DNA of 64,000 bases from NCBI GenBank assembly GCA_963555995.3, contig OY821641.1:480001-544000 (forward strand), read 5' to 3'. Under the pieces are notes generated by a model. The model searched no databases and was not told the origin of the DNA. It worked only from the letters and a program-made list of their open reading frames with translations. This document shows, one piece after another, positions 13,460 to 34,442 of this stretch. The position numbers and the translations under genes are program-made. The DNA comes from Vicinamibacteria bacterium. GTDB lineage: Bacteria; Acidobacteriota; Vicinamibacteria; Marinacidobacterales; Marinacidobacteraceae. Every line of letters starts with the position of its first letter. Position 1 is the stretch's first letter.

Positions 13460-14083
13460 TCAATTCCCTGGTGCGCCTGGGTCTGTCAGACGGTTCTGGC
13501 GCCGAAGCTCCATGGCGACGAAAGGGGATTCCCTCACCAGCACGTCGAAACAGATCCGCCCCGTCCAGAAGTCCGCAGCGTGGCTCTCCCGCGTGGTGCG
13601 AAACGCGTAGTCGTTGAGTTTCAATCGGCAGATCGTCGCCTCTACCTGGGCCCGAATCTCCGCCGACAACCGCCTGCCCGGACAAACCTGGAAACCGCTC
13701 AGCTCGATACGAAACCAGCCATCCTCAAGCTCGAAGGGATCGAGGACATCCAGCCAGTTGTTCTTCCGGGAGTTCATACGCGAGGAGGCGAGTCGGAAAT
13801 TGCTCCACTCGTAGATGAGATGCCACTCCCGCGACTTGGGGGCCATGTGATCCACGGAGGCGGCGCCGGTTACAGCATGGATGCGGAAACAGGAATACGC
13901 GCAGATCTCGTTGTATGCCTTCATGAGATCCGGTATGGCCTTTCTCCAAAGACTCGGCAAGCGGTCGACCAGTTCATCGGGAGGCGTCGCCTCGGCCTTC
14001 AACCGCTCGATGGCCCTTTTCCCCGGTTTGCGCACCTTCGTGTCGAAACCCGGAGGCTCGGGTGCCGGCGTAACGGGAATCAT
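13460..14083 (-). CDS. HNH endonuclease (PtuB/retron-effector-like)
   Basis: Starts MIPVTPAPEP at 14083 (ATGA overlap with the ATPase stop); CAYSC...VDHMAPK...WSNFRLASSRMNSRK HNH motif. Confidence 0.85.
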   Translation of the reverse strand: MIPVTPAPEPPGFDTKVRKPGKRAIERLKAEATPPDELVDRLPSLWRKAIPDLMKAYNEICAYSCFRIHAVTGAASVDHMAPKSREWHLIYEWSNFRLASSRMNSRKNNWLDVLDPFELEDGWFRIELSGFQVCPGRRLSAEIRAQVEATICRLKLNDYAFRTTRESHAADFWTGRICFDVLVRESPFVAMELRRQNRLTDPGAPGN

Positions 14084-15327
14084 CGTCCCATCGAATGCCG
14101 ATACTGAGTCCAGCGGACCCAGAAGCGATCCACGTCGCTCAGGGCAGCCCGAAGTGCACCCTCCACCTGATCCAGTTCGTCGCCGGACGCTGTGCCGTCC
14201 CTGCGGAAGAGCGCCAAAGCATCGGTAATCGCGTTCTCCGCCTCGATAGAGCGCGGTTCCGTCAGATCGAACACGGAAGACGTGAGCCAAGCGTTGGCGT
14301 CGCCGTGTCGGCTCCAGGAATGTTCGAGAAGCGTGACGCTTCTTTCTTCGAGTTTCAGTTCCCACACGGCGTCGGAGTCTTTGTCGAACTGCGCTTCGAC
14401 GGACGCCAGAATCAGCGGTGAGTGCGTGGCCGCCACCAGTTGCACCGGAATCCCGGCTTCGCCCGTGAGTGCCTCCATCACGTCCAGCAAAGCCGGCACG
14501 ATCCGACGCTGCCACTCCGGGTGAAGGTGCGCTTCGATCTCGTCGATCAGGAAGATGATCTCACGGGCAGGCGCATCGCCGCGCAATTCTGCGGACGCCA
14601 CATGTTCCTGCCAAGTCCACACCAGCAAATAGGCTAGGGAGACGATGCGGCGAATTCCGGCCGAAGCGTGCACCAGCGGCACTTCCAGCCCGTACGGGGA
14701 CCTAATGGTGGGATGTTTCCGCGCGTCGCTGAGCGATAGCTTGATGAGTTCTCCCGGTTCCAGAGGTTCGGCTGGAGACGGCGAGAGCGCCACGAGGACG
14801 CTTTTTAGCTGCCGCATGGCGTCGCCGTCCTCGAGCTGCCAGTTCGCCCAATCCGCAATCAGCCCGTTGCAGTATTTGGTGGACCCTCCGAGGGGCAGGC
14901 CGTCCCAGACTTCCCGGCCCGAGAACAGGTACGCCGCCTGCCTTTCGCTGTCCTGCTCCTTCCAGTAGTTTCGGGCTGGGTCCCAGACCGAGAAGCCGCC
15001 GTCGACCTGGGCATAAAGCACGAGACCGGGAATCGGCGGGCGGCCCCGCCGCAGCTTCCACTGTTCTTCGCCACGGTCGAAGTTACTCTCGTACTCATGG
15101 GGTTTCGATTTGGCTCCGTAGCGGTAGAGAATTCTCGGAACGGCAGGGGGCCGATGCGGCACGAGCATCGTCCGCGCCCAGGTTCGAGTAAGAGCCCACC
15201 AAGCGGCTTCGAGAAGAAAGGATTTGCCGAGCCCGTTGTCGCCAGTCAGGAAGTTCATCCGACGTCGGAAATCGAGCGTCAAGCGCGGCGCCGGGCCGAC
15301 GCCCTCGAAGCTCAACCGTTCGATCAT
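14080..15327 (-). CDS. ABC/AAA_21-type ATPase (PtuA-like defence ATPase)
   Basis: Walker A GDNGLGKS, signature ASAG, Walker B LIDEIEAHLHPEWQ, ATHSPLI. Confidence 0.9.
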   Translation of the reverse strand: MIERLSFEGVGPAPRLTLDFRRRMNFLTGDNGLGKSFLLEAAWWALTRTWARTMLVPHRPPAVPRILYRYGAKSKPHEYESNFDRGEEQWKLRRGRPPIPGLVLYAQVDGGFSVWDPARNYWKEQDSERQAAYLFSGREVWDGLPLGGSTKYCNGLIADWANWQLEDGDAMRQLKSVLVALSPSPAEPLEPGELIKLSLSDARKHPTIRSPYGLEVPLVHASAGIRRIVSLAYLLVWTWQEHVASAELRGDAPAREIIFLIDEIEAHLHPEWQRRIVPALLDVMEALTGEAGIPVQLVAATHSPLILASVEAQFDKDSDAVWELKLEERSVTLLEHSWSRHGDANAWLTSSVFDLTEPRSIEAENAITDALALFRRDGTASGDELDQVEGALRAALSDVDRFWVRWTQYRHSMGR

Positions 15328-16478: not shown

Positions 16479-18191
16479 ATGCGCGGGAAACGGCGAATTG
16501 CCCTGATCGGGATGGCCCCCCTGCTGGGTCTTCCCCTGCTGCTCGCACCCTCGCTGGACGGGCCCGCCGAAGGCGCCGGGATGAGCGTCAACGGGATGGT
16601 GGTGACCTCCCACCCGCTCGCGGCGCAGGCCGGGCTGCGGATGCTGCAGGCGGGCGGGAACGCGTTCGACGCGGCGGTGGCGAGCGCGGCCGTGAAGGCC
16701 GTCGTGGAACCGCTCATGTCCGGGCTGGGCGGGGTGGGCGGCTACGCGCTGATCCACGACGCCAAAACGGGAGACATCCGTTCGGTGGACTTCATCGGCG
16801 CGGCCCCGGCCGCCGCGGACCCCGAAGCGTTCACCGCCGGCAGCCGGCTCTGGGACCGGACCCATCCGGCCCGCGACAGTTTCCTGGCGCCGCTGGTGCC
16901 CGGCAACCTGGCCGGCTGGGCGGCGCTCCTCGAGGAGTACGGCTCGATGTCCTGGGCGGAAGTGCTGGCGCCCGCCATCGAGTACGCCGAAGACGGTTTC
17001 GCGGTGACCCCCGCGGTCAGCGGGCCGTTCGGGACGAGCGGCTTCGGCGCCGACGTGGCCCGCTACCCCTACGGCGCCGGCATCTTCTTCAAGGGCGGGA
17101 AGCCCTGGCCGGTGGGCGAGGTCCTGAAGCAGCCCGACCTGGCGAAGACCCTCCGGGCCATCGCGGCCGATGGGCCGGGGGTCCTCTACGGCGGGGCGAT
17201 GGCGGAGACGGTCGTGGACTTCTTCCGGCAGAACGGCGGCATCCTCACCGTGGAGGACTTCGCGAACTACCGGGCGCGCTGGAGCGAGCCGCTCTCGACG
17301 ACCTACCGCGGCTACACGGTGTACAGCCAGCCCCCCGGCGGTTCCGGGATGACGATCCTGCAGACCCTGAACATCCTCGAGCAGTTCGACGTGCCGGCGC
17401 TGGAGCACAACTCCGAGGAGTTCGTCCATCTGGTGGCGGAGGCGATGAAGCTGGCGTTCGTGGACGAGGACATCTGGAACACCGGCAAGGACTACGCCGA
17501 CATTCCGCTCGACCGGCTGCTCTCGAAGGAATATGCGGCGCAGCAGGCGGCGCGGATTGATCTTTCCCGGGCGCAGTTCCACGCCGCGGTCCGCGACGGG
17601 AGCGACCTGCCCACCGCGGTGGAGCACACCACGCACCACACGGTGGTGGACAAGGACCACAACGTGGTGACCATCACCCAGACGCTCATGCTCCCGGCGG
17701 GGGTGGTGGTCCCCGAGACCGGGGTCATCTTCAACAACGGGATGTCCTATTTCAGCCTGGACCCCGAGGACGTGAACCTCATCGAGGGCGGGCAGCGGCC
17801 CCGCTTCGTGATGAGCCCCACCATCGTGACCCGCTACGACAAGCCCTACTTCGCCCTCGGATCGGCGGGAGGCTGGACCATCCCGCAGACGATCCTGCAG
17901 GTGCTGGTGCGGGCGCTCGACTACGAGATGGACGCCCCGGCGGCGGTGGACGCGCCGCGTTTCGTGGTCCGCTACCTGGCGAACTCGATTCCCTACATGG
18001 ATGGGACCGATCTGGTGCTGGAGAAGGACTTCCCGGATGAGGTGCGGGAGGCGCTGAACGCCAGGGGGCATCGCCTGCGCGAGCCCCCCAACCGGATCGG
18101 GATGCTGAACGCGATCCGGATCGTTCCGGGCTCGGGAGTGCTTTCCGGGGGGCCGGACAAGCGCCGCGAGGGCGCCGCGGCGGGCTGGTGA
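16479..18191 (+). CDS. ggt: Gamma-glutamyltransferase (Ntn hydrolase)
   Basis: GGNAFDAAVA, SGLGG, HTTH catalytic Thr, TGVIFNNGM and MSPTIV motifs; signal peptide. Confidence 0.92.
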   Translation: MRGKRRIALIGMAPLLGLPLLLAPSLDGPAEGAGMSVNGMVVTSHPLAAQAGLRMLQAGGNAFDAAVASAAVKAVVEPLMSGLGGVGGYALIHDAKTGDIRSVDFIGAAPAAADPEAFTAGSRLWDRTHPARDSFLAPLVPGNLAGWAALLEEYGSMSWAEVLAPAIEYAEDGFAVTPAVSGPFGTSGFGADVARYPYGAGIFFKGGKPWPVGEVLKQPDLAKTLRAIAADGPGVLYGGAMAETVVDFFRQNGGILTVEDFANYRARWSEPLSTTYRGYTVYSQPPGGSGMTILQTLNILEQFDVPALEHNSEEFVHLVAEAMKLAFVDEDIWNTGKDYADIPLDRLLSKEYAAQQAARIDLSRAQFHAAVRDGSDLPTAVEHTTHHTVVDKDHNVVTITQTLMLPAGVVVPETGVIFNNGMSYFSLDPEDVNLIEGGQRPRFVMSPTIVTRYDKPYFALGSAGGWTIPQTILQVLVRALDYEMDAPAAVDAPRFVVRYLANSIPYMDGTDLVLEKDFPDEVREALNARGHRLREPPNRIGMLNAIRIVPGSGVLSGGPDKRREGAAAGW

Positions 18192-19798
18192 CCTGCCTGC
18201 CCCGGCGTTCGTGGCTTCCGTTTCGGGACCCGTCGCCGCTGGAATACACTGGGCTCATGGGGTTCGGGAAAGTCTCTCGCAGCGTTCGGAACCTGCCTGT
18301 CCCGGTGGCATTGGCGCTGGGCTGCGGACTCGTGTCCGTCGCGGGCGGCGGGTGCGCGCTCAGGGCCGCATCCCCCGCCCGGGAGGCGGCTCCCGAGCTA
18401 CCCGCCGACTTCGTCGAGAGCCCGGCAGCTGGCGCCCCTGAGGCGCAGGAGTGGTGGCGGGCGTTCAACGACCCGGCGCTCGACCAGGTGGTCGCATCGG
18501 TACTGGACTCCAACTTCTCCGTGGCGGAAGCGGTCGCGCGCGTCGAGCAGGCCAGAACGCGGGCCCGGCTGGCCGACGCGGCGATCCTCCCCAGTGTCGG
18601 CGCGAGCCTCACCGCGGAAACCTTCGACCTGCCCACGAATGCCGCGATCGGCGCGCAGCTCGAGGACCTGGGCCTCGATTTCCCTCTGCCCGACCGGTTG
18701 GGCTTCCCGACCTATACCCTGGGCGCGGACTTCGCCTACGAAGCCGATTTCTGGGGCCGCGTCCGGCACACCGCCCTCGCGGCGGGATCCGAGCTGCTGG
18801 CCTCGGAGTTCGACCTGCGGGTCGCCCGCATCGGGATCCTCGCCGAGACGATTTCGGTCTACTTCGAGATCGGCCACCTGCGGCAGCAACGCGCCATCGC
18901 CGGGCGGCAGGTGGAACTGCTCGAGGAACGCGAGCGGTTCGTCGCGAGCCGCTACGAACGCGGGCTCACGGCTTCCCTCGAGCTGCACGGCGTCCGCGAG
19001 GCCCTCTCCAGCGCGCGGGCCGGCGTGCCGCAGGTCGAGAACCAGCTCGCCGAGACGGAGTCCCGGCTCGCCGTACTGCTGGGAGGCTACCGGGAGGACG
19101 TCGCGGCGATCCTTCCCGACTCCCGGTCGCCGGAAACCCCGGCCGAACCCGTGCCGGCCGGCATTCCGGCCGACCTCCTTTCGCAGCGGCCGGACGTGCA
19201 GGCCGCAGGTCACCGGCTGGAAGCCGCCGGACACACCGTCGAAGCGCGGCGCGCGGCCCTGATGCCCCAGCTCTCGCTCTCCGGATCCATTGGACTGCGG
19301 AGCACGGACGCCGGAGGCCTTTTCGACGTCAAGCAGTGGTTCACGAACCTTGCCGGCAACCTGCTCCGGCCGGTGTTCGACGGCGGCCGGCTGGCGAGCG
19401 GCGTGGAACTTGCCGAAGCGCGCTTCGATGAGCTGGCGGCAGCCTACGGCCGGACCATCGTTACCGCGGTCAACGAGGTGGAAGCGGCCCTGGCAACCCT
19501 GAGGAACGAAGGCCGCCGGCAGGAATCTCTTGCCGCCCGCCACGAAGAGGCCCGGACGTCCGTGGAAGTGCAGGCCAGACGTTACGAGTCGGGCATCAGC
19601 GGCTATGGCGATCTGCTCGACGCCACCGCCGGACTGCTGGACGCGGAATTGGCGCTTGCGGGTTCGGAGCGGAACCTGGCCCTCGCCCGGCTGGCCATCC
19701 ACCGGGCCCTGGGGGGCGCGTGGGCCGGCCCGGACGCGATGGCCGGCGCTCCGGCGGGCGCACCGGACACCCGTGCGAAAGGACCGGCGGACCGATGA
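18188..19798 (+). CDS. RND efflux outer membrane factor (TolC/OprM/NodT family lipoprotein)
   Basis: WWRAFNDPALDQ, YEADFWGRVR, PAGIPADLLSQRPDV, LHR/IHRALGG motifs; the true start may be ATG 18257. Confidence 0.92.
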   Translation: MTCLPRRSWLPFRDPSPLEYTGLMGFGKVSRSVRNLPVPVALALGCGLVSVAGGGCALRAASPAREAAPELPADFVESPAAGAPEAQEWWRAFNDPALDQVVASVLDSNFSVAEAVARVEQARTRARLADAAILPSVGASLTAETFDLPTNAAIGAQLEDLGLDFPLPDRLGFPTYTLGADFAYEADFWGRVRHTALAAGSELLASEFDLRVARIGILAETISVYFEIGHLRQQRAIAGRQVELLEERERFVASRYERGLTASLELHGVREALSSARAGVPQVENQLAETESRLAVLLGGYREDVAAILPDSRSPETPAEPVPAGIPADLLSQRPDVQAAGHRLEAAGHTVEARRAALMPQLSLSGSIGLRSTDAGGLFDVKQWFTNLAGNLLRPVFDGGRLASGVELAEARFDELAAAYGRTIVTAVNEVEAALATLRNEGRRQESLAARHEEARTSVEVQARRYESGISGYGDLLDATAGLLDAELALAGSERNLALARLAIHRALGGAWAGPDAMAGAPAGAPDTRAKGPADR

Positions 19799-21015
19799 AT
19801 CGAACCAGGGGGTACGTCCTGGCGGCGATCATCCTGCTCGGATCGTTCGGGATCGCCACCCTGCTGATCGCGCAGCGGCCCGAGCCCGAGCGGCGCGAGC
19901 CTCCCTCCCCGATTCCGTTCGTCGTCACCTCCCCGGCGGCGGCGGGTTCCGGGTCGATTCCGGTCCATGGCGCCGGCACGGTCCGGCCACGCGAGCAGGT
20001 GGACGTGGCCGCCGGGGTGAGCGGACGGGTCGTGTGGGTGGATCCGGCTTTCGAGAGCGGCGGGCGGGTCAGCGAGGGCCAGGTGCTTTTCCGCCTCGAC
20101 GACAGCGACTACCGCCACCGGACCGAGCAGGCGCGATCCGGCGTCGCCGGGCAGCAGTTGGAGTTGCTGCGGGTCGAGGAGGAGGCCCGGATCGCCCGCG
20201 AGCAGTACGAAGCGTTCCAGAGCCGCCGCGGCGCCGCCGCCGGAGGTGCGAACGCGAGTCCGCTCGCGCACTGGGAGCCGCAACTCGAGGCGGCGCGGGC
20301 CGGCGTGGAACGGGCCGACGCCCTCCTGGCGGAAGCCGAACTCCTGCTCGCGCGGACGGCGGTGCTGGCGCCCTTCGACGCGGTGGTGCGTTCCGAGACC
20401 GTCGGCGTGGGGCAATTCGTGACCGCCGGAGTGGGGGTGGCGCAGATCTACGCGTCCGATGCGGTCGAGATCGTCGTCCCGCTGTCGGACGCCGAAGCGG
20501 CGCTCGTCCCGGGCCTGTGGGACCTGAGGCCGGGAGTCGCGGACCGCCGGGCGGCGGCCCGGGTCACTGCGGAATACGGCGCCGGCGCCTACGCCTGGGA
20601 GGGATATGTGGACCGGGTCGAGGCCGCGCTGGACGAAACGACGCGGACCCTCGACGTGATCGTGCGGGTTCCGAACCCTTTCGAGGGCGGCTCCCGGGTG
20701 GAAACCGGCGAGGCGGACGCAGACCCCGGATCTTCCGCCGGGTCCCCGCCACCGCTCCTGATCGGCCAGTTCGCGAACGTCGAGATAGCGGGGATCGCGC
20801 CGCAGGAGTACTTCCGGATAAGGCGGCTGGGGCTCCGACCGGGAAACGAGGTCTGGGCGGTGGACGGCGAGGCGGTGACCATCGTTCCGGTGCGCGTGTT
20901 GCAGCGCTTCGACGACACCGTGTACGTCACGGGTGGGTTGCGGGAAGGCCAGGACGTGGTGCTGACCGGGATCCAGTTCGCGACCGAGGGAATGAGGGTG
21001 CGCACGGCGGAGTAG
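19795..21015 (+). CDS. RND efflux periplasmic adaptor (membrane fusion protein)
   Basis: ATGA overlap with the OMF stop; VSGRVVWV, RTAVLAPFDAVV, LDETTRTL and GLREGQDVV MFP motifs. Confidence 0.92.
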   Translation: MNRTRGYVLAAIILLGSFGIATLLIAQRPEPERREPPSPIPFVVTSPAAAGSGSIPVHGAGTVRPREQVDVAAGVSGRVVWVDPAFESGGRVSEGQVLFRLDDSDYRHRTEQARSGVAGQQLELLRVEEEARIAREQYEAFQSRRGAAAGGANASPLAHWEPQLEAARAGVERADALLAEAELLLARTAVLAPFDAVVRSETVGVGQFVTAGVGVAQIYASDAVEIVVPLSDAEAALVPGLWDLRPGVADRRAAARVTAEYGAGAYAWEGYVDRVEAALDETTRTLDVIVRVPNPFEGGSRVETGEADADPGSSAGSPPPLLIGQFANVEIAGIAPQEYFRIRRLGLRPGNEVWAVDGEAVTIVPVRVLQRFDDTVYVTGGLREGQDVVLTGIQFATEGMRVRTAE

Positions 21016-21044: not shown

Positions 21045-21231
21045 TTAACAGCCCGTGGTGAAACCCACGCGAGCGCCGAGAGCGGTGAGGCGCCCGGCTG
21101 ACAAGGCGCGTGAGGGAGGAATACCGGGTGTATTCCGACCGAAACGCAACGATGAGCGCCTCGTAGAGGCGCGGTTCAGGCGGGATGCATCGCCGCTCGA
21201 ACGCCGCGTGGGTTTTGCCACAGGCTGTTGA
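21045..21231 (+). repeat. 187-bp structured dispersed element, copy 2
   Basis: ttaacagcccgtgg...ccacaggctgttga; collinear with copy 1. Confidence 0.9.
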
Positions 21232-21291: not shown

Positions 21292-22320
21292 ATGAGTGAA
21301 GGCGCGCTCCCCCCGTTCCCGGAGGGTTGGTATTTCGTCGCCACCCGAGCGTCCCTGGAGAAGGCGAAGCTCATCCAGAAGACGTGGATGGGACAGGACA
21401 TCGTTGCCTGGTGCGACGACGCCGGCAGGGTCTCCGTGGCCGAGTCGGTCTGTCCGCACCTCGGGTCCGAACTGGGACCCGTCGCCGGCGGCCGGGTGCG
21501 CGACGGCCGTCTCGTCTGTCCCTTCCACGGCTACGAGTTCGACGCCAGCGGCCAATGCGTCGCCACTCCCTTTGCCCCGCCGCCGAAGACCGCGAAGCTG
21601 AAGTCCTTCGAGACCCGGGAGGTTCTCGGCATCGTCTTCGCCTGGTGGGGCGCCGGTGGACGGCCCCCGCGGTGGCGCCTCCCGGAAGACCCGCCGGCCG
21701 GAGCCGACTGGTGCCGACCGGCGTTCCGGACTCTCCGGTTTCGGGGGCACCCTCAGGAAACGAGCGAGAACGCCGTGGACATGGCGCACCTGCGGTACGT
21801 GCACGGCTACGGCAACGTCGGCCGGGTCGGAAAGGTGACCGTGGACGGCGCGCAGCTCGTGAGTTCCTTTGACTTCAAGCGCACCCAGAGCGTCGTCGGG
21901 ATCGCGAATCTCACTTTCGACGTTTCCGCGACCGCCCACGTCGTCGGGCTCGGGTATTCCTTCGTGGAGTTCCGCGAACGCTCCATTGGCATGGACGGGC
22001 GTCTGTGGGTGCTTGCGACGCCCGTGGACGGCACCCTCATTGACCTGGTGCTGGTCAGCCAGTTTCGGCAACTGCGGAAGCCGAAACGGCCGATCGTCGG
22101 CTTGCGGTTCCTCCCGCTGACGCTTCGCACGCGGGTCATGAACGCGTTGATGCTGACTTTTCAGAAACACGACGTCCTGCAGGACGTGGAGATCTGGAGC
22201 CGGAAACGGTACCGGTCGCGGCCGAGCCTCTCCCGGTCCGACGGTGAGATCGGAATGTACCGGCGCTGGTGCAAGCAGTTCTACGCAGAACCGGGAACAC
22301 CCGAGCTCACGCCGTCCTGA
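21292..22320 (+). CDS. Rieske non-heme iron oxygenase, Neverland/DAF-36 (sterol C7-desaturase)/KshA-like
   Basis: PPFPEGWY start; Rieske CPHLG...CPFHG; Fe-binding ENAVDMAHLRYVH; C-terminal DVEIWSRKRY...DGEIGMYRRWCKQFY. Confidence 0.85.
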   Translation: MSEGALPPFPEGWYFVATRASLEKAKLIQKTWMGQDIVAWCDDAGRVSVAESVCPHLGSELGPVAGGRVRDGRLVCPFHGYEFDASGQCVATPFAPPPKTAKLKSFETREVLGIVFAWWGAGGRPPRWRLPEDPPAGADWCRPAFRTLRFRGHPQETSENAVDMAHLRYVHGYGNVGRVGKVTVDGAQLVSSFDFKRTQSVVGIANLTFDVSATAHVVGLGYSFVEFRERSIGMDGRLWVLATPVDGTLIDLVLVSQFRQLRKPKRPIVGLRFLPLTLRTRVMNALMLTFQKHDVLQDVEIWSRKRYRSRPSLSRSDGEIGMYRRWCKQFYAEPGTPELTPS

Positions 22321-23677
22321 AGCGCCAGCCGTACATCACCCGTCCGTAGAAGTTGAACCACTTCCTGGCCTCGGGGTCGTCGAACGGGTATTCCGCGCCG
22401 AGCTGCCTCGCCGTAACGAGGCCGGACACGAAACAGGTCTCCTGGCTGTTGATCAGGGTGTGCGCGCCGCAGTGCCAGGTCCGCCGCTTTCCCTGGACGA
22501 AGCGAAAGATCTGCGTCAGAAAGGCCACGTGACGCACGTCGTGGACGATGTGCTGAAACCACCACTTGCTGACGATCTTGTTGTCGGCGATCCGACTGAT
22601 CGGGTTGTAGGTCACGAGACACGGCTTGTCCGACTTCTTCGCCCACGGCTGCTGGTTGTGCATGATGTAGGTGATTTCGTAGTTGTCCGGCCGCGCGCCG
22701 TACTGCTGGATGTGGTTGCTCCGGGTGGCGAGGGGCCTGACTTCGCTGTCGGGGAGGACCGAGGCGTCCGAATGGACGACCGTGTGGTTGTGCAGTTCGC
22801 TCTCGTAGCGGACCTGTGAGAGGAGCCAACCCTCCAGCCGGGTCGGCCGGTCGAGGAGCATCAGCGTCTGGTTCGCGTTGCACGCGAAAACGACGTCATC
22901 GAACGTCTCCGCCGTTCCGTTCTCATCTTCCACGACGACGTCGTACCGGCGCCGGTGAACCTTTCGCACCGGCCGGTTCAGGTAGATCCTGTCGCGAAAC
23001 GACGCCGACAGCTCCCGATAGATCCGTCGGGTTCCCTGGTCCCACGTCTGCATCGGCGTCGCGGTCTCGATGTCGAAGAAGTCCAGGTAGCGGGAAAACA
23101 GCGACGCCGGCATGTCGAACACGTTCGTCGCCATCAGGAAGTTGACGAACATGGGTTTCAGGATCTTGTAGCGGAAGTCTCCCGAGTACCGGCCCAGGTT
23201 CAGCAGGGCGCCCATGCTGACGTAGTTGAACGGATTGAGGGCGCCGAGCAGTTTGGACCGGGACAGGTTGAGGCGGCCGAACCATTGAAGGCGCCGCAGC
23301 AGCCGCTGGAACCTCCGGATTTCCGGTTGCAACTGCCTCCGGATGTCGGAGTCGAAGTCGTGGGCATAGATTTCGCCCCGATACTTCACGCTGTAGTTGA
23401 ACCGGGTGGCGACCAGTTCGATCCCGTGCTGCTGCATGAACAGGACGAAGTGGTGGTATGCCGACGGAATGCACGCGGTCACTGAAATGTCGAACGGGAT
23501 CGCGCCGCCGCCGTCCTGGGGCATTTCGGCGGTGATCGCATTGCCGCCGAGCTGGGCCTGCGCTTCGAACAGTCGGAAATCGAAGCGGTCCGGATGCTGG
23601 TTGAGCGCCCACGCCACTCCGAGTCCCGAAACGCCCCCGCCGACGATGGCGATCCGCCGCGGCTTCGCTGCACCCAT
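22307..23677 (-). CDS. FAD-dependent oxidoreductase (COG2907/amine-oxidase-like)
   Basis: Start MGAAKPRRIAIVGGGVSGL (Rossmann GxGxxG); FEAQAQLGGNA, VVHSDASVLP and QGKRRTWHCGA motifs. The longer upstream frame runs through a REPIN and is unlikely to be coding. Confidence 0.88.
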   Translation of the reverse strand: MGAAKPRRIAIVGGGVSGLGVAWALNQHPDRFDFRLFEAQAQLGGNAITAEMPQDGGGAIPFDISVTACIPSAYHHFVLFMQQHGIELVATRFNYSVKYRGEIYAHDFDSDIRRQLQPEIRRFQRLLRRLQWFGRLNLSRSKLLGALNPFNYVSMGALLNLGRYSGDFRYKILKPMFVNFLMATNVFDMPASLFSRYLDFFDIETATPMQTWDQGTRRIYRELSASFRDRIYLNRPVRKVHRRRYDVVVEDENGTAETFDDVVFACNANQTLMLLDRPTRLEGWLLSQVRYESELHNHTVVHSDASVLPDSEVRPLATRSNHIQQYGARPDNYEITYIMHNQQPWAKKSDKPCLVTYNPISRIADNKIVSKWWFQHIVHDVRHVAFLTQIFRFVQGKRRTWHCGAHTLINSQETCFVSGLVTARQLGAEYPFDDPEARKWFNFYGRVMYGWRFRTA

Positions 23678-23782
23678 GTTTTCTACTCTACCGTCGCGGG
23701 CGGCCGCCTCGTCCCCACCGGAAGAAGACCCCCATGATCGGGTCCTCCCGCACACCCCGCCGGTCATGAGAATTGCGGAAAC

Positions 23783-23991
23783 GGCTTGGAGCGCCGGCTT
23801 CAGCCGGCACCCGCTGCGCGGAGCGCAGCGGAACGGCGTACGGCTCCTGCCCGCATGGCGCGTGGGCAGGCGAGGCGGCTCCAAAGAACTGGTGGCCGGC
23901 GTTCCCGGCCTTTGCGCCATCCGGGCGGATGAGGTCCTTCCCGCCGCCCGCCTGCGGCGGGCTGTGCCGGCTGAAGCCGGCGTTCCCAGCC
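23783..23991. repeat. REPIN-like element (variant A)
   Basis: ggcttggagcgccggcttcagccggcac...gtgccggctgaagccggcgttcccagcc; interior is the reverse complement of the 10097 copy. Confidence 0.9.
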
Positions 23992-24181
23992 GTTGGACCC
24001 TCACGGCTGTTGGCGGACCCGCACGGGACTGCATCTTCACAGCAACCGGGCCGGCGGCGCCATCACGGCTCCGAGGTGGACCCCCGAAGTAGCACTTTGG
24101 CGACGACTCGCCGCGCTCGGCGCTCGTGGAGGTTTCCCCGCCGGCTGGTAGAATTCCCGCCGGACAATCCGGAGGGGGCCG

Positions 24182-26245
24182 GTGGGCATGGCCTCAAGCC
24201 GCTCGATCCGGATGTCGAAGACCATGAGCGAGGCCACCCGGTTCCCGATCCGAATCGCCGAGGAGTTGATCCTCCTCATGCTGGACGAGAAGAGCGGCTA
24301 CCTGGAGATGGTTCCGAACTGGGACTTTTCCTGTGTCATGGCCGGGGCCGTGCTCGCCGATCTGGCCCTGGAGCGTCGCATCGAGACCGACCTGGAGCGG
24401 TTGTACCTGGTCGATCCCACACCGACCGGAGACGAGTTGCTCGACCCGACGCTCAAGGACATCGCCGAATCCGATGAAAAATCGGACGCTCAGTTCTGGA
24501 TCGAACGGAACACCCGCCACGCCGACGAAATCGTCGCGACCGCCCTCGACCGCCTGGTGGAGCGGAACATCCTCACCCACGAGCACGGCGGATTCTGGGG
24601 GCTCTCGCGCTCCGTCGCCCGTTCGGGGACTTTCCCGACCCAGGCTGTCGAGACCCGCAGGGAATCCAAGGCGAGGATCCTGAGCGTCATCCTGCACGAC
24701 GAGATCCCGGACCCGCGGGACGCCATCCTGGTCGCCCTGATGCACACCTGCGGCGGCTTCAAGCTGCGGCTGGAGCAAGAAGACTACGAAGAGCGGCTCG
24801 CCCGGATCGAGCTCGTGGCCAGGCTGGACCTCATCGGACGGACGGTCGCGGCCGCCGTGCAGGACAGCACGGCGAAGCCCAAGACCCGTCGCGTGGTTCA
24901 GACCAAGCCCATTCCCAAGCTTGGGTATCTCAACGTACTGCTACAGCGTGATTTCCTCTCGGGCAACATCCCGAAGGCGATGTACGGCATTTACCGAAGA
25001 CACGGGCCGGTCGTCAGAATGCCCTTCAAGATCCGCGGCGCGCCCGTGGTTTCGGTGATGGGTCCCGATGTCAATCACTGGGTCAACCGGCACGGGCGGT
25101 TCTATCTCCGCTCGAAGGACTACATCGAAGGGCTGGAGCACGCGTTTGGCGCGTCCCGGAGCATGCCCGGCATGGATGGCGCGGAACACTATCGAATGCG
25201 CAAGGAACTCCAGTCTGCGTATTCCCGCGCCACGCTGGCGCAGCGGTTGCCGGAACTGATCCACGACTGCCGGAAATCACTGAGTCGTTGGAAGGAAGGA
25301 GATGTCTTCCGCGCCACCGAGAGCTTTCAGAACCACATCAGCAGTCAGATCTCGCATTTCGCGATGGGAGTGGATTGCAGCAGCTATGTGGACGAACTGT
25401 TGACTTTCGAACACCGGGCTCTGGTAACGCAGGTCCAGGGCGCATTGCCGGGTTTCATGCTGTCCACCCCAAGAATGAAACGGTACGGGAAGCGAGTCAG
25501 GGAACTCCAGGAGGCGATCACCGCGGCGCATACCACAGCGCAACGTAAGGGAAAGCCCAGGGATCTGGCCGACGCGATTCTCGATCTCCACAAGAGGGAT
25601 CCGCAGTTCCTTCCCGAAACGGACCTCACGTTTCCCTTCGTGGCGTCCATGGTCGCCAGCATCTATATGGGCAGTGCGTTGGCCTTCGCCATTTACAACA
25701 TGGTTCGAAACCCGGACGTGTACGCGAGGGTCCGGAGCGAAGCCGAGTCGCTCTTCGGCAACGGCCGTGGACTGGGAGGAGATGACTTCAATCACGAGAG
25801 CGTTGATGTCACGGTGCGTCTCTGCATGGAATCCTCGCGCATATACCCGGTGATTCCCTGGCAGTTGAGAACGGTCATGAACGAGTGCATCGTCAGTGGT
25901 TACGAGATACCGCCGAAGACGATGTTGCTGATCTGCCAGACGGCGCCGCACTATGCCGGGGACCTGTACCGGGATCCGTTGAAGTTCGATATAGACCGGT
26001 ACCTGCCGGACCGGGCCGAACATCTGCAACCGGGCGCCTACGCGCCCTACGGCCTCGGTACGCACATGTGCCTCGGCCACCGGTGGGTGGAACTTCAGAT
26101 GGCCGTCAACGTCCTGCTCATCGCGCGCCACCTGGAGCTCGAAGTGGTGCCCGGCAACTACCGGATGGGAATCAATCCGTTCCCGACCCTGGCCCCCAAC
26201 AGGAAACTGAAGTTCCGCGTCGCCCAGATCCCGAATCCCTTGTGA
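24182..26245 (+). CDS. GPP34 (GOLPH3/Vps74-like) domain fused to cytochrome P450
   Basis: N-terminal IAEELILLMLDEKSG...AGAVLADLALERRI...PTGDELLD (GPP34-like); C-terminal P450 with ESSR (ExxR), FDIDRY and the heme motif YGLGTHMCLG. Confidence 0.88.
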   Translation: MGMASSRSIRMSKTMSEATRFPIRIAEELILLMLDEKSGYLEMVPNWDFSCVMAGAVLADLALERRIETDLERLYLVDPTPTGDELLDPTLKDIAESDEKSDAQFWIERNTRHADEIVATALDRLVERNILTHEHGGFWGLSRSVARSGTFPTQAVETRRESKARILSVILHDEIPDPRDAILVALMHTCGGFKLRLEQEDYEERLARIELVARLDLIGRTVAAAVQDSTAKPKTRRVVQTKPIPKLGYLNVLLQRDFLSGNIPKAMYGIYRRHGPVVRMPFKIRGAPVVSVMGPDVNHWVNRHGRFYLRSKDYIEGLEHAFGASRSMPGMDGAEHYRMRKELQSAYSRATLAQRLPELIHDCRKSLSRWKEGDVFRATESFQNHISSQISHFAMGVDCSSYVDELLTFEHRALVTQVQGALPGFMLSTPRMKRYGKRVRELQEAITAAHTTAQRKGKPRDLADAILDLHKRDPQFLPETDLTFPFVASMVASIYMGSALAFAIYNMVRNPDVYARVRSEAESLFGNGRGLGGDDFNHESVDVTVRLCMESSRIYPVIPWQLRTVMNECIVSGYEIPPKTMLLICQTAPHYAGDLYRDPLKFDIDRYLPDRAEHLQPGAYAPYGLGTHMCLGHRWVELQMAVNVLLIARHLELEVVPGNYRMGINPFPTLAPNRKLKFRVAQIPNPL

Positions 26246-26312: not shown

Positions 26313-29300
26313 ATGAGTTCCGATCCAGGCAGCCACGCCGAGCCCGGCGGACCGATCGCCTACATGGCGAGTAACGGCGTCGCTTCCAATCTCCTGATGT
26401 TCAGCATCCTCGCGGTGGGCCTCGTGTCGCTGACCGGCCTCGAGCAGGAAGGGTGGCCCACGGTTCCCTTCAACCAGTTCGAGGTCTCGGTGCCGTTCCC
26501 CGGCGCCACGCCCGAGGAGGTCGAGGAGGCCATCGTCGTCAAGATCGAGGACGAGGTCAGGGGGCTGGCGGACGTGAAGACGGTCCGGTCCATAGCGGCC
26601 CCGGGGATGGCGTCCGTCAGGGTCGAAGTCAACTCGGGTACGGACATGGGCGCCAAGAAGGATGAAATCGAGGCGGCGGTCGGGCGGATCCAGACGTTCC
26701 CGGGCGGGGCCGAACGGCCCCAGATCCGGGAAATGACGAACGCGCAGAGCATGATGCGCCTCGTCCTCTACGGCGACGTTCCCGAGCGCTCGCTGAAGGA
26801 GCTCGCCTACCGGATCGAGGACGATCTCGCCGCGCTTCCGAACGTGTCCCAGGTCGAGATCAGCGGCGTGCGCAACTACGAGATCTCGATCGAAGTGCCG
26901 CTCGAGCGCCTGCGGGCCCTCGGGCTCACGTTGGCCGACATCGCCAACACGGTTCGCCGCGGTTCCCTGGACCTGTCCGCGGGCAGCATTGATACCGACC
27001 GGTCCCAGGTGCGGATTCGGACCCTGGGTCAGAGCCACGACCAGCAGGACTTCGAGGACATCATCATCCTCGGCCGCGCCGACGGCACGGCGGTCCGCCT
27101 GGGCGACATTGCCGAGGTGCGCGACGGCTTTCAGGACTCCGGTCTGATCGTCCGGCACGAGGGCCACCCCGCCGTGTTCGTCGAGGTCTCGCGCGCCGAT
27201 GGCGAGAGGGTGATGGATGTGGCGCGCGCTGTTCGCGACTACGTCACGAGCGAACTGGCCCCCTCGCTCCCGGACGGCGTGGGCATCAGCATCTGGAACG
27301 ACGACTCCTCGGCCTTTGTGGAGCGCGGCGTCCTTCTCCTCAAGAATGGAGCTCTGGGGTTGTTGCTGGTCCTGCTCGCGCTGGGTCTGTTTCTCCAGCT
27401 CCGGCTGGCGTTCTGGGTCGCCGTCGGTCTTGGCGTTTCCGGGATCGGCGCGCTCGCCGCCATGCTGGTGTTCGACATCCCGCTCCATGCGGTGTCGCTC
27501 TTCTCCTTCGTGCTCGCCATCGGCATCGTCGTGGACGATGCGATCGTGGTGTCCGAGCACATCCACCTGGAACGAAAGCGCGGCACGCCGGGGGTCGTTG
27601 CGGCGATCCGGGGGGCGCGGCGCATCAGGGTGCCGCTGATCTTCGCGGTGCTGACGACGATGGTGGCGTTCCTTCCACTGCTCTTCATACCTGCGGGGTT
27701 CGGCGAGGTCTGGAAGGCGCTGCCGATCATCGTCATCGCCATGCTGCTGATTTCGCTGGTCGAATCGCTGCTGGTGCTGCCGAACCATCTGTCCCATCAT
27801 CTGCATGGCCCGGACTGGGCGCCCCGGACGGGCGTGGAACGATTCGTCGCGCGGATCCAGAATCGTGTCGATTCCCTGTTGAACCGCTTCATCCAGGGAC
27901 CCCTGGACCGCGGGATCCAGTTCGCGGCGGACTGGCCCGGAGTGACGGTTTCGGGGGCCGTCGCGCTGCTTGTCCTGAGCATTTCCCTCCTGCCGGCCGG
28001 CATCGTCCCCGCCACCTTCGCCACGGAAGTCGAAGGTGACTTCGCCATCGCCACCCTCGAAATGCCGGACGGAACGACCGCGCCGCAGACGTACGCCGTG
28101 GCGGAGCAACTCGAAGCGGCCGGCCGCCGGGCGGTGGAGCGGCTTTCCGAGGAACGACCGGCCGATGCGCCTCCGCTACTTTCCGGGGTTACCGTCGTCA
28201 TCGGCCAGCGGTCGCGCGTCGAGACTGGGGGTCTCAACCCCTCGCCCACCCTGAACCCGGAGGCCAACGTCGCGACCATCGAGTTCAAGCTCCTGAGCGC
28301 GCAGCAGCGGCGCATCACTTCGGGAGAGGTCGTGCAGGCATGGCGCGAGGAGGCGGGCGAACTGCCTCAGGCGCGCGCGGTCACCTACATCAGCCAGATC
28401 TACACGCTGGGCAACCCGGTCGAGGCGGCGCTGTCCCACCCGGATCCGGAGCGCCTCAACGAGATCGCGAACTCCACCGTCGCCGGGCTCGGCGGAGTCG
28501 GGGGCGTCTTCGACATCCGCTCGGACCACACGCCCGGGGTGCCGGAAATCCAGGTGGGAATGCTCCCCGAAGCGCGCACGCTCGGTCTCACGCTGGACGA
28601 TCTGGCCCGGCAGACGCGAGCCGCCTTCTTCGGCGCCGAGGCCGTCCGGGTACAGCGAGGACGCGACGAGGTTCGGGTTTACGTGCGGCTACCCGAGGAG
28701 CAGCGCGACTCGATTACCGATATCGAGGGCTACCGGCTCTCGACGCCCGCCGGCGCCGACGTGCCGGTCAGCCGTGTGGCCGCGCTGCGTTCCGGCACCT
28801 CCCCACCGGCCATCCGGCGCCAGGACGGCCAGCGCGTCGTCACGGTGAGCGCCGATGTGGATCCCGGGGTGGTTTCCGCCGGGACCGCCAACGACATTCT
28901 GGAGAACACCATCCTGGCGGGACTCGTCGCCCAGAACCCGGAACTCACGTACACGTTCGGAGGGGAGCAGCAGCAGCAGCTCGACTCCCTGGGCGGTCTC
29001 TATCGCGGATTCGCGATCGCGCTGCTCCTGATCTTCGCGCTGCTGGCCATTCCCCTGCGCTCCTACACCAAGCCGTTCATCGTCATGGCCATCATCCCGT
29101 TCGGGTTTGTCGGCGTGATCCTGGGTCACTGGATGCTGGGGGTCGCCGTCAGCGCGGAGTCCTTCGTCGGGATCTTCGGGCTCGCCGGGGTGGTCGTCAA
29201 CGATTCCCTGGTGATGATTGATTTCACCGACCGGAAGCTCCGCGATGGAGTCCCCGTGCGAACGGCGATCATCGAGGGCGCGAAGGGACGCTTCCGTCCG

Positions 29301-29501
29301 ATCATGCTGACTTCCCTGACGACCTTCCTGGGCTTCACCCCCCTGATTCTCGAGGACGCGATTCAGGCGCAGTTCTTCGTTCCCTTCTCCGCCTCGATCG
29401 GCTGCGGCATCCTTTTCACCACGGCGCTCATCATGTTCCTGGTGCCCGCGCTCTCCTCGATCCACCTGCGGCTGACTTCGGCGCAGGGCCGCGCGGGTTA
29501 G
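26313..29501 (+). CDS. RND efflux permease (AcrB/AcrD/AcrF family)
   Basis: 1062 aa; FPGATPEEVE, GIVVDDAIVVSE (TM4), GVVVNDSLV and RFRPIMLTSLTT motifs. Confidence 0.95.
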   Translation: MSSDPGSHAEPGGPIAYMASNGVASNLLMFSILAVGLVSLTGLEQEGWPTVPFNQFEVSVPFPGATPEEVEEAIVVKIEDEVRGLADVKTVRSIAAPGMASVRVEVNSGTDMGAKKDEIEAAVGRIQTFPGGAERPQIREMTNAQSMMRLVLYGDVPERSLKELAYRIEDDLAALPNVSQVEISGVRNYEISIEVPLERLRALGLTLADIANTVRRGSLDLSAGSIDTDRSQVRIRTLGQSHDQQDFEDIIILGRADGTAVRLGDIAEVRDGFQDSGLIVRHEGHPAVFVEVSRADGERVMDVARAVRDYVTSELAPSLPDGVGISIWNDDSSAFVERGVLLLKNGALGLLLVLLALGLFLQLRLAFWVAVGLGVSGIGALAAMLVFDIPLHAVSLFSFVLAIGIVVDDAIVVSEHIHLERKRGTPGVVAAIRGARRIRVPLIFAVLTTMVAFLPLLFIPAGFGEVWKALPIIVIAMLLISLVESLLVLPNHLSHHLHGPDWAPRTGVERFVARIQNRVDSLLNRFIQGPLDRGIQFAADWPGVTVSGAVALLVLSISLLPAGIVPATFATEVEGDFAIATLEMPDGTTAPQTYAVAEQLEAAGRRAVERLSEERPADAPPLLSGVTVVIGQRSRVETGGLNPSPTLNPEANVATIEFKLLSAQQRRITSGEVVQAWREEAGELPQARAVTYISQIYTLGNPVEAALSHPDPERLNEIANSTVAGLGGVGGVFDIRSDHTPGVPEIQVGMLPEARTLGLTLDDLARQTRAAFFGAEAVRVQRGRDEVRVYVRLPEEQRDSITDIEGYRLSTPAGADVPVSRVAALRSGTSPPAIRRQDGQRVVTVSADVDPGVVSAGTANDILENTILAGLVAQNPELTYTFGGEQQQQLDSLGGLYRGFAIALLLIFALLAIPLRSYTKPFIVMAIIPFGFVGVILGHWMLGVAVSAESFVGIFGLAGVVVNDSLVMIDFTDRKLRDGVPVRTAIIEGAKGRFRPIMLTSLTTFLGFTPLILEDAIQAQFFVPFSASIGCGILFTTALIMFLVPALSSIHLRLTSAQGRAG

Positions 29502-30556
29502 TCCTGATCGGCAGGCCGGCGCGCCACGAAACAGTAGAGCGGCGTGAAGATCCCCGTCCTGCCCCCCGCGACGTAGGCGTTCGCGGTCCGGTCCAGGAGC
29601 GCGACCACCTCCGCCGAACCCTTCGGGAACATGCCGAGGAACTCGGCGATCCGGATCCCCCACCGCAGCGCCTTGCGGCCCAGCGGAATCCGGCGGAAAG
29701 CGCTGCCGGGCAGCCCGCGCTGCGTTTCCATGGGCTGATACCACGGCGTCTCCGCACTGCCCTCGTGGACGGCGAGGTCCGTACCCTCCACGACTTCGAA
29801 TCCCGCGGTTTCGAGCGCCCGGTTCACCTCCCCGAACGTTGCGATGTCCTTGAGCGCGATGCCGTGCCTGAGCTCCCGTTCGATGGCGCGGTGCCGGCCG
29901 TTCCCGGGGTCGTACAGCTCCGTCATGCACATTTCCTGACCCCAGAGGAGGGCTCCGGGTTTCAGGACCCGGTAGATCTCGGCGAACGCGCCCGCCTTGT
30001 CGGCCGCGTGGCAGGTTGATTCGATCGCGTAGCCGCGGTCGAAGGTCCGGCCCGCGATCTCGCCCATGTCCATGAAGCTGCACCGGAGCAGATCGGTCCG
30101 GGCATCGAGCCCCGCGGCGGCGTTCAGCCGCCTGGCCTTGTTGCACTGGACCTCACTGGCGTTGATCCCGACAACCCGGACTCCGGCCTCCCGGGCGACG
30201 CGGCGCATCGGACCGCCGATCCCGCAGCCGACATCAACCACCGTCATCCCCGGCCGCAGTTCGAGCTTGGAGATCATGAGTCGCTGGTGCCGGATCTTGG
30301 AGTCCTCCAGACTCTCGCCGGGCGACAGCGGCGCGAAGTGCAGGGATTCTCCCCAACCCCAGACCATGAACGCGGTACAGAGGTCGTAGTACTCCTGGAC
30401 CGTCCGTGCGTGGTCGTACCCCTCGTCGGCGCCATCCTCCCGGGATGCCCTGCCGGTCCATCCTTCGAGGTCCCGTACCCGGCTCGGGACGTCCGATCCT
30501 GCGAACGCGGTCTTGAGCCCATCGGACAGTTCACGAATGTCCCGCGTGAGCTTCAT
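29498..30556 (-). CDS. Sterol 24-C-methyltransferase-like (ERG6/SMT family) SAM-dependent methyltransferase
   Basis: YYD....WGWGESLHFA (SMT region I), VDVGCGIGGP (SAM-binding), YAIESTCHA (region III), RVLKPG, and a Sterol_MT_C-like tail PWYQP...FRRIPLGR...PKGSAEV...GGRTGIFTPLYCFVARRP. Confidence 0.88.
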   Translation of the reverse strand: MKLTRDIRELSDGLKTAFAGSDVPSRVRDLEGWTGRASREDGADEGYDHARTVQEYYDLCTAFMVWGWGESLHFAPLSPGESLEDSKIRHQRLMISKLELRPGMTVVDVGCGIGGPMRRVAREAGVRVVGINASEVQCNKARRLNAAAGLDARTDLLRCSFMDMGEIAGRTFDRGYAIESTCHAADKAGAFAEIYRVLKPGALLWGQEMCMTELYDPGNGRHRAIERELRHGIALKDIATFGEVNRALETAGFEVVEGTDLAVHEGSAETPWYQPMETQRGLPGSAFRRIPLGRKALRWGIRIAEFLGMFPKGSAEVVALLDRTANAYVAGGRTGIFTPLYCFVARRPADQD

Positions 30557-34157: not shown

Positions 34158-34168
34158 TTGACGCCAAG

Positions 34169-34355
34169 TTAGCAGCCTGTGGCAAAACCCTCGTGGCGTT
34201 CAAGCGTTGATGCATCCCCGCTGAACCGCGCCGCTGTGCGGCGCTCGGCGTTGCGTTTCGGTCGGAATACACTCGGTATTCCTCCCTCACGCGCCTTGTC
34301 AGCGGGGCGCTTCACCGCTCTCGGCGCTCACGGGGGTTTCACCACAGGCTGTTAA
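34169..34355 (-). repeat. 187-bp structured dispersed element, copy 3 (opposite orientation)
   Basis: ttagcagcctgtggcaaaacc...ggtttcaccacaggctgttaa. Confidence 0.9.
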
Positions 34356-34442
34356 CACCCGGTGGAGAGAGTGGCGTGAGCACCGGGCCGGGAGAAACGA
34401 CGGCACCGAACTTTGTTCGCTGCCCGCGTGATCGGGGGAAAG

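Follow-up and report, generated by a model that had tools for sequence, protein, structure and literature searches.

What does a sterol methyltransferase (SMT) do once the aromatic residues of its substrate pocket have been replaced? The question is raised by a minus-strand gene in a 64,000-nucleotide stretch of a Vicinamibacteria bacterium genome (GCA_963555995.3, contig OY821641.1, positions 480,001 to 544,000), referred to here as the window. The original prediction described its product as a eukaryote-type sterol C24-methyltransferase with three altered substrate-binding motifs, which may give a non-standard product or act on another terpenoid. Both the open reading frame at 29498-30556 and the three altered motifs proved real and correctly placed, and the motifs are conserved across 120 homologues, so they are not due to chance. 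The gene and its motifs are as follows.

29498..30556, minus strand: SMT-family methyltransferase gene, a 352-residue open reading frame with class I methyltransferase and Sterol_MT_C domains
30335..30367, minus strand: Region I, residues 64-74 (yeast 81-91), MVWGWGESLHF; Y81M, E82V and F89L, with G84, W85, G86, H90 and F91 kept
30209..30235, minus strand: Region II motif binding S-adenosylmethionine (SAM), residues 108-116, intact
30005..30031, minus strand: Region III, residues 176-184; E195 kept, A196S
29930..29938, minus strand: end of Region IV, QEM, residues 207-209 (yeast 223-225); Y223Q and W225M, with E224 kept
29852..29863, minus strand: GIAL, residues 232-235 (yeast 248-251); bulky Ile at 249, the position limiting repeated methylation
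29513..29701, minus strand: Sterol_MT_C domain (Pfam, E 8.7e-17)

Yeast numbering was set through a fungal homologue (P0169), in which all 25 published positions matched at one constant offset. On this scale the window SMT has M81, V82, W83, L89, Q223, E224, M225, I249 and A250. It keeps 24 of the 25 residues common to functional SMTs, the sole difference being the replacement of F89 by Leu. H90, all five Region II residues, E195 and E224 are retained. The Region I motif of functional C-24 SMTs, GWGxxFHF, is not matched, owing to Leu at 89, and Phe is present at neither 81 nor 83. The acidic residues, to which the original prediction pointed along with the aromatic ones, are lost only in part, with E82 gone and E195 and E224 in place. 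An AlphaFold model (pLDDT 92.6), which replaced an earlier, poor model built on 17 sequences (pLDDT 62.5), has the RebM/AtmM/TleD fold; SMT structures were absent from its PDB matches.

The altered motifs are fixed marks of a whole subfamily of sponge-symbiont SMTs with a rebuilt substrate pocket. The 120 homologues comprised the window protein and 119 relatives at 69-84% identity, and were the best 120 of 2224 matches among 7998 scored candidates. M81, L89, M225 and A250 were found in every one of them, I249 in 119 (Val in the other), Q223 in 118 and V82 in 114; at position 83, where the window protein has Trp, 75 have Phe. Residues D125, G127, G129, G132 and P133 of Region II were present in 120 of 120, and H90 and E195 were likewise invariant. 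A comparison set of 97 full-length SMT-like representatives was drawn from 150 listed, excluding fragments, three basal relatives and two pieces of the subfamily. The changes at 81, 82, 89, 223, 225 and 249 were present in 95-100% of the homologues and in 0-3% of the comparison set. There were 19 diagnostic positions, eight of them within Region I, the end of Region IV and the 245-249 stretch. Position 177, which we take to act beside the SAM site, has changed from Asp to Ser in 98% of the subfamily. The ratio of nonsynonymous to synonymous substitution rates (dN/dS) was 0.22-0.43 in all ten pairs formed by the window gene and ten chosen loci. The possibility that the gene is a pseudogene, or the product of decay in a single lineage, was ruled out by the fixed residues and by dN/dS values below 0.45. 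That the motifs mark a large symbiont subfamily in a conserved cassette is the point that the original prediction missed.

The genome loci analyzed were the best 80 of at least 574 relatives (574 of 584 matched stretches). All 80 came from metagenome-assembled genomes, distributed over Chloroflexota (43), Acidobacteriota (22), Gemmatimonadota (7), Pseudomonadota (5), Actinomycetota (2) and Rhodothermota (1), and their isolate prefixes are presumably those of sponge series. The best 80 of 242 relatives in metagenomes of the Joint Genome Institute (JGI) were also kept; 79 of these were 56-81% identical and came from 11 datasets, and 36 of the 79 belong to datasets that Brown et al. named as Aplysina aerophoba, Petrosia ficiformis or Sarcotragus foetidus. 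Among the Acidobacteria proteins stands one of Rhodothermales at 80% identity, and of the 201 genomes sampled from the window's class 15 carry the gene; together these findings point to horizontal spread. In the sponge metatranscriptome X23, contigs with 85% likeness were present over each of the 30 bins into which the region was divided. The intergenic parts were covered too; the contigs may therefore derive from DNA, and no conclusion on expression was drawn. Eighteen runs with shares below 0.2 were left out of the habitat evidence. A promoter scan returned 0 sites.

Whether a protein with such a pocket still belongs to the SMT family was assessed in several ways. In BLAST comparisons, it scored 190-254 bits against five SMTs and 67-80 bits against four non-SMT methyltransferases. 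Both domains were above their cut-offs, with Sterol_MT_C matched at 61.4 bits (cut-off 21.7, E 8.7e-17) over residues 286-348, and the neighbours in the ESM Atlas were all SMT-named or methyltransferase clusters. The NCBIfam equivalogs for cyclopropane fatty acid and mycolic acid synthases gave 62, 51, 47 and 38 bits, far from their cut-offs of 650, 400, 390 and 600. The general Pfam CMAS model was passed, as it was by other SMT clusters. The known C-24 SMTs (ERG6/SMT1/SMT2, Ap_sym_SMT, Chl_SMT) have the same domain layout, SAM motif, H90, E195 and 24 of the 25 residues; in contrast, Y81M, E82V, F89L, Y223Q, W225M and Ile249 are fixed in the subfamily, and the window SMT bears an extra, non-aligning N-terminal helical segment. 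Its identity to canonical SMTs is 35-44%. The likeness to ERG6/SMT1 takes in the Sterol_MT_C domain but is not strictly end to end, as alignments with eukaryotic enzymes start only at residue 36-48. Moreover, the label "eukaryote-type" was misleading: bacterial SMTs of sponge symbionts are already in the literature, and the scores of bacterial relatives match those of eukaryotic ones.

A tree of 36 rows, a selection of the homologues, united the subfamily and the three basal relatives at 100/100 on a long stem and placed them inside the SMT group at 93/94. However, approximately unbiased (AU) tests did not reject joining the subfamily to the cyanobacterial outgroup (p 0.063), which we take to be of the tocopherol-pathway type, or to cyclopropane fatty acid (CFA) synthase (p 0.149). 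In the phylogenetic check proposed with the original prediction, grouping with the SMTs was thus favoured by the best tree without rejection of the alternatives by the AU tests, and the tree alone therefore does not settle SMT membership. Membership is supported instead by the domain content, the conserved residues and the BLAST scores. The three basal relatives (P0122, P0124 and P0125; 41-52% identity) share L89, Q223 and a bulky residue at 249; all differ at 248, and one differs also at 81 and 225. They are useful for tracing the pocket change. A full-length, very divergent SMT-like protein on a Legionella lytica plasmid (L093:571-1584), 23% identical and without the Region I motif, was placed between the SMTs and the outgroups.

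One member of the subfamily has probably been assayed already. The protein at locus L111 (MKWU01000439.1; L112 is 99.995% identical to it over 19,107 bp) is 68% identical to the window SMT and has M81, L89, Q223, M225, I249, S78 and D224. The gene order at both loci is sdmB, sdmA, ERG24, CYP51, an SMO-OSC fusion, a canonical SMT, a Rieske fragment, the subfamily SMT and a GPP34-P450 fusion, and genes 16 to 9 of JGIcombinedJ30088_10000835 have the same order (PMC10070321). The canonical SMT of L111 has F81, F83, all 25 residues and Gly225 at yeast position 249, which fits the published mutant of the propylating enzyme, G249D (G225D). The published identities to Erg6p are 42% and 35%, and those to the fungal proxy used here are 39% and 32%. 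Because of the gene order and the Gly225 numbering of the neighbouring SMT, the L111 member is most likely 'Aplysina aerophoba JGIcombinedJ30088_10000835 2 of 2'. As the contigs named in the 2023 paper were all missing from the 80 metagenome loci that were kept, the match depends on L111/L112. The '2 of 2' homologue (Brown et al. 2023, PMC10070321; 10.64898/2025.12.19.695621), as matched here, shares the motifs of the window SMT but belongs to an operon for de novo sterol synthesis, where its neighbour is a propylating SMT, and has D224 and S78, whereas the window's genome has no cyclase match.

According to the preprint on these SMTs, T78 and F89 were kept in all functional SMTs, and neither was among the residues kept by all tested proteins (Brown & Welander, 10.64898/2025.12.19.695621). 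Since every functional enzyme has T78 and F89, the L111 member, with S78 and L89, would fall among the inactive ones, and the subfamily is probably without activity on desmosterol or 24-methylenecholesterol. A non-standard reaction, as originally proposed, is therefore likely, given that neither of the two standard substrates appears to have been methylated by a member 68% identical to the window SMT.

One form of that proposal, multiple methylation, did not hold. A propylating bacterial SMT would be expected to have Gly at 249 and Phe at 81 and/or 83; the subfamily has Ile at 249 in 119 of 120 homologues, and the window SMT has Phe at neither 81 nor 83. In Chl_SMT, a propylating bacterial SMT, the G249I mutation left an enzyme that made only C28 sterols, which makes more than one round of methylation unlikely. 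The other proposed forms, namely C-26 alkylation, cyclopropane formation and action on another terpenoid, may still apply. Published docking (Brown & Welander preprint, 10.64898/2025.12.19.695621) places residues 81 and 249 on either side of the side chain, and both are changed in the window SMT. In the literature, H90 has been proposed as the base and E195 has likewise been assigned a role. With the SAM motif, H90 and E195 invariant, methyl transfer with loss of a proton stays plausible.

A single C-methylation of a non-standard sterol, imported or prepared by the cassette, has in our judgement an even chance of being the reaction. SAM would donate one methyl group to a carbon-carbon double bond in a sterol that is not one of the standard delta-24 substrates and that probably comes from the host or from neighbours. 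The loss of the aromatics at 81, 89 and 225 and of Y223, together with the bulky Ile249, would change where the side chain sits with respect to SAM and permit one round, with H90 taking off the proton as in other SMTs. The double bond could be the one at the end of the side chain in (epi)codisterol-type sterols, the delta-25 methylene, in which case C-26 would be methylated; alternatively, it may first be installed by the Rieske enzyme, the P450 or the flavoenzyme of the cassette. A co-occurring ERG4/ERG24-family reductase could saturate the product, and an RND pump would move it.

The possibility was considered that the protein is instead an ordinary C-24 SMT that adds one methyl group and needs another ring system (delta-7, delta-8, 4-methyl or 3-oxo), or fails in E. 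coli lysate. The 24 retained residues are consistent with this, as are the G249I mutants, which still methylate once; furthermore, inactive results are common (6 of 10 in one set), and other substrates are allowed by the assay authors themselves. However, F89 is present in every functional SMT of that study, and the four replaced pocket aromatics are fixed across phyla. Moreover, a second SMT of canonical type lies within 8 kb of the subfamily gene at five loci (L031, L045, L071, L103 and L111), and the retention of the subfamily gene beside it suggests a separate job. An ordinary C-24 enzyme is therefore judged unlikely.

The cassette in which the gene lies comprises the following features.

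26313..29501, plus strand: AcrB-type RND transporter; within 10 kb in 34 of 80 loci, a few being distant paralogues
24182..26245, plus strand: GPP34-cytochrome P450 fusion, start codon uncertain; within 10 kb in 66 of 80 loci
22307..23677, minus strand: FAD oxidoreductase of amine-oxidase fold, start codon placed by eye; within 10 kb in 39 of 80 loci
21292..22320, plus strand: Rieske oxygenase with KshA-type C-terminal domain; within 10 kb in 57 of 80 loci
19720..21015, plus strand: HlyD-type membrane fusion protein; 13 of 80 loci
18188..19798, plus strand: outer-membrane efflux channel, presumably TolC-like by resemblance; 14 of 80 loci

The stop codon of the SMT gene overlaps that of the RND gene by 4 nt. 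An MMPL/HAE3-type pump lies within 10 kb in 38 of 80 loci, and the order and orientation of the cassette vary among loci. The P450 has a heme cysteine motif, and its I-helix motif, A-S-x-Y-x-G (residues 492-500), was found in 66-67 of 67 homologues. The acid-threonine pair of the canonical P450 I-helix is missing there, and no ferredoxin or reductase family recurs within the cassette; the P450 is, for these reasons, possibly not an ordinary monooxygenase. A paralogue of the flavoenzyme, 27% identical, lies at G000:C1:3086805-3094300 (L174) among genes that we take, by eye, to be desaturase-like, DUF1365-like and CFA-synthase-like. This methylate-desaturate-oxygenate layout for fatty acids may, by analogy, be a model for the logic of the cassette.

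Several further elements were observed in the window. Copies of a miniature inverted-repeat element of about 185 nt, with terminal inverted repeats of 25-28 nt, lie at 21046-21229 and 34168-34356, with a partial copy at 24104-24150. Contigs of two other runs lack the copy that separates the HlyD and Rieske genes (a 186-nt skip), which makes it polymorphic. A second short element, with 31-nt arms that are 94% complementary, lies upstream of the flavoenzyme gene at 23780-23994, where very high contig depth suggests many copies elsewhere. An AAA-type ATPase gene (14080-15327), followed by an HNH-like gene at about 13460-14080 on the minus strand, resembles by eye a two-gene defence system.

Parts of this neighbourhood have been met before. 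The GPP34-P450 fusion found beside the subfamily gene in 66 of 80 loci is the one described from sponge symbionts in PMC11706023; that paper proposes interference with phagocytosis, and its main text contains 0 instances of 'methyltransferase' and 0 of 'steroid'. The steroid clusters of Ircinia symbionts (Kelly et al. 2022, PMC9531527) are also spread horizontally over many phyla of sponge symbionts and often have an SMT nearby. However, they are built on ERG24, CYP51 and a cyclase, all three absent from the window cassette; a cyclase motif occurred in 2 of the fetched loci.

The source of the substrate was sought in the genomes of the carriers. The genome of the window, 92.95% complete, holds a single SMT and no triterpene-cyclase (PF13243) match; de novo sterol synthesis was rejected for it on the lack of a cyclase match, and these two features make an outside source of the sterol likely. 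An ERG4/ERG24-family sterol reductase is encoded elsewhere in this genome (G000:C1:2816410-2817576, L081). The reductase is conserved at 68-93% identity across phyla, tracks the subfamily, and lies within 10 kb of the subfamily gene in L147 and G031. Among the 50 carrier genomes that were searched genome-wide, out of the 80 loci, it was found in 39, in 37 of them at 68% identity or more. In the class sample of 201 genomes, a reductase at 75% identity or more was present in 12 of 15 carriers vs 2 of 186 others. A single Sterol_MT_C match was found in 32 of the 50. For the cyclase, 16 had no match, nine had short weak matches only, five were intermediate and 20 had strong full-length matches, which were not typed.

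Several results weigh against a reaction on a non-standard sterol, beginning with the AU tests above. A strong cyclase match in 20 of 50 carriers means that hopanoids are available in many of them. The co-occurrence counts include non-independent kin, the class-sample carriers being mostly of one genus, and the two samples partly overlap. The link of the neighbouring genes to steroids is weak by sequence: the best solved relative of the GPP34-P450 is cholesterol 24-hydroxylase (E 5e-21), and the Rieske-KshA match covers mostly residues 7-171. Furthermore, the inactivity of the L111 member was deduced from gene order, numbering and one published sentence; and 6 of 10 further SMTs were also inactive in that assay system, in which two delta-5 sterols were the only substrates tried.

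The acceptor might instead be a non-sterol lipid, either a hopanoid or a linear triterpene (squalene, for instance), or else a hydroxyl group that the P450 or the Rieske enzyme has introduced. Algal triterpene methyltransferases methylate squalene. The fold of the model is common to the O-methyltransferases RebM and AtmM and the terpene C-methyltransferase TleD, and Leu at 89 occurs in RebM too. The carriers with a strong cyclase match would suit a hopanoid, and tandem genes of the squalene/phytoene-synthase family are present in the window's genome, which has no cyclase match (G000:C1:813017-814926, L175). However, a squalene-synthase-like protein was found in only 12 of the 50 carriers, a co-occurrence so weak that squalene methylation was rejected as the general role, and the cyclase is absent or short and weak in 25, whereas the sterol reductase is present in 39. 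The sterol-specific C-terminal domain, the SMT-type Region III and the position of one member directly on a de novo sterol operon also argue for a sterol. Methylation of a non-sterol acceptor is consequently held to be quite unlikely.

The ring, rather than the side chain, could also be methylated, at C-4 of a 3-oxo sterol via the enol as in nematode STRM-1, with the Rieske enzyme and P450 acting like DAF-36, a Rieske enzyme, and DAF-9, a P450. The nematode 4-SMT is likewise an SMT relative with lost Region I aromatics and a changed reaction, and it acts in a pathway with DAF-36 (PMC6997595). It is inert on 3-beta-hydroxy sterols, and the same habit would explain the inactivity deduced for the L111 member. 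However, STRM-1, likened to the window SMT by its description only, is far more diverged, with 21% identity to Erg6p; the window SMT, 35-44% identical to canonical SMTs, keeps GWG, H90 and E195 and has lost Y81 and F89 but has W83, W85 and F91. In addition, no 3-hydroxysteroid dehydrogenase was seen among the families common to at least 6 loci, as judged from sequence starts only. Ring methylation appears very unlikely. A non-catalytic protein that binds or carries sterols for the pump and the oxidases would fit the presumed inactivity of one member and the Ser at 177. A pure carrier would have no need of the Region II residues, H90 and E195 that are invariant in 120 of 120 homologues, and such a role is highly improbable.

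A more specific form of single methylation of a non-standard sterol, which we put forward as speculative and on balance unlikely, is that the subfamily is the missing sterol C-26 methyltransferase: symbionts of many phyla would take delta-25 sterols of the (epi)codisterol type, products of SMTs in the host or in neighbours, lengthen the side chain at C-26 and pass the product on via the reductase and the pump. Chemically, a terminal delta-25 methylene resembles the exocyclic methylene that takes part in the second SMT step. (Epi)codisterol is made by both sponge and bacterial SMTs and was named in 2023 as the substrate of an undiscovered 26-SMT. Aplysina aerophoba and Petrosia ficiformis have aplysterol and petrosterol as major sterols. 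Two observations tell against C-26 methylation: 16 of the 79 metagenome loci came from Sarcotragus foetidus, so that the subfamily is as common there, and the ten sterols listed for the related Ircinia mutans include no 26-methyl compound.

No description of the subfamily, the cassette or a C-26 enzyme was found in the full-text literature, most subscription journals lying outside its coverage. Side-chain-extended sterols serve as chemical evidence for the earliest animals, and according to a 2025 paper the ownership of the C-26 enzymes, sponge or bacterial, is still unsettled. The subfamily, abundant in sponge microbiomes, has its catalytic residues in place and probably fails on the usual substrates. 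If C-26 methylation were true, 'sponge' skeletons of the aplysterol, petrosterol and 26-methylstigmastane types would be partly bacterial products. Even if it fails, symbionts of six or more phyla, often without a cyclase, carry a sterol-type enzyme that ties the GPP34-P450 'symbiosis factor' to lipid chemistry.

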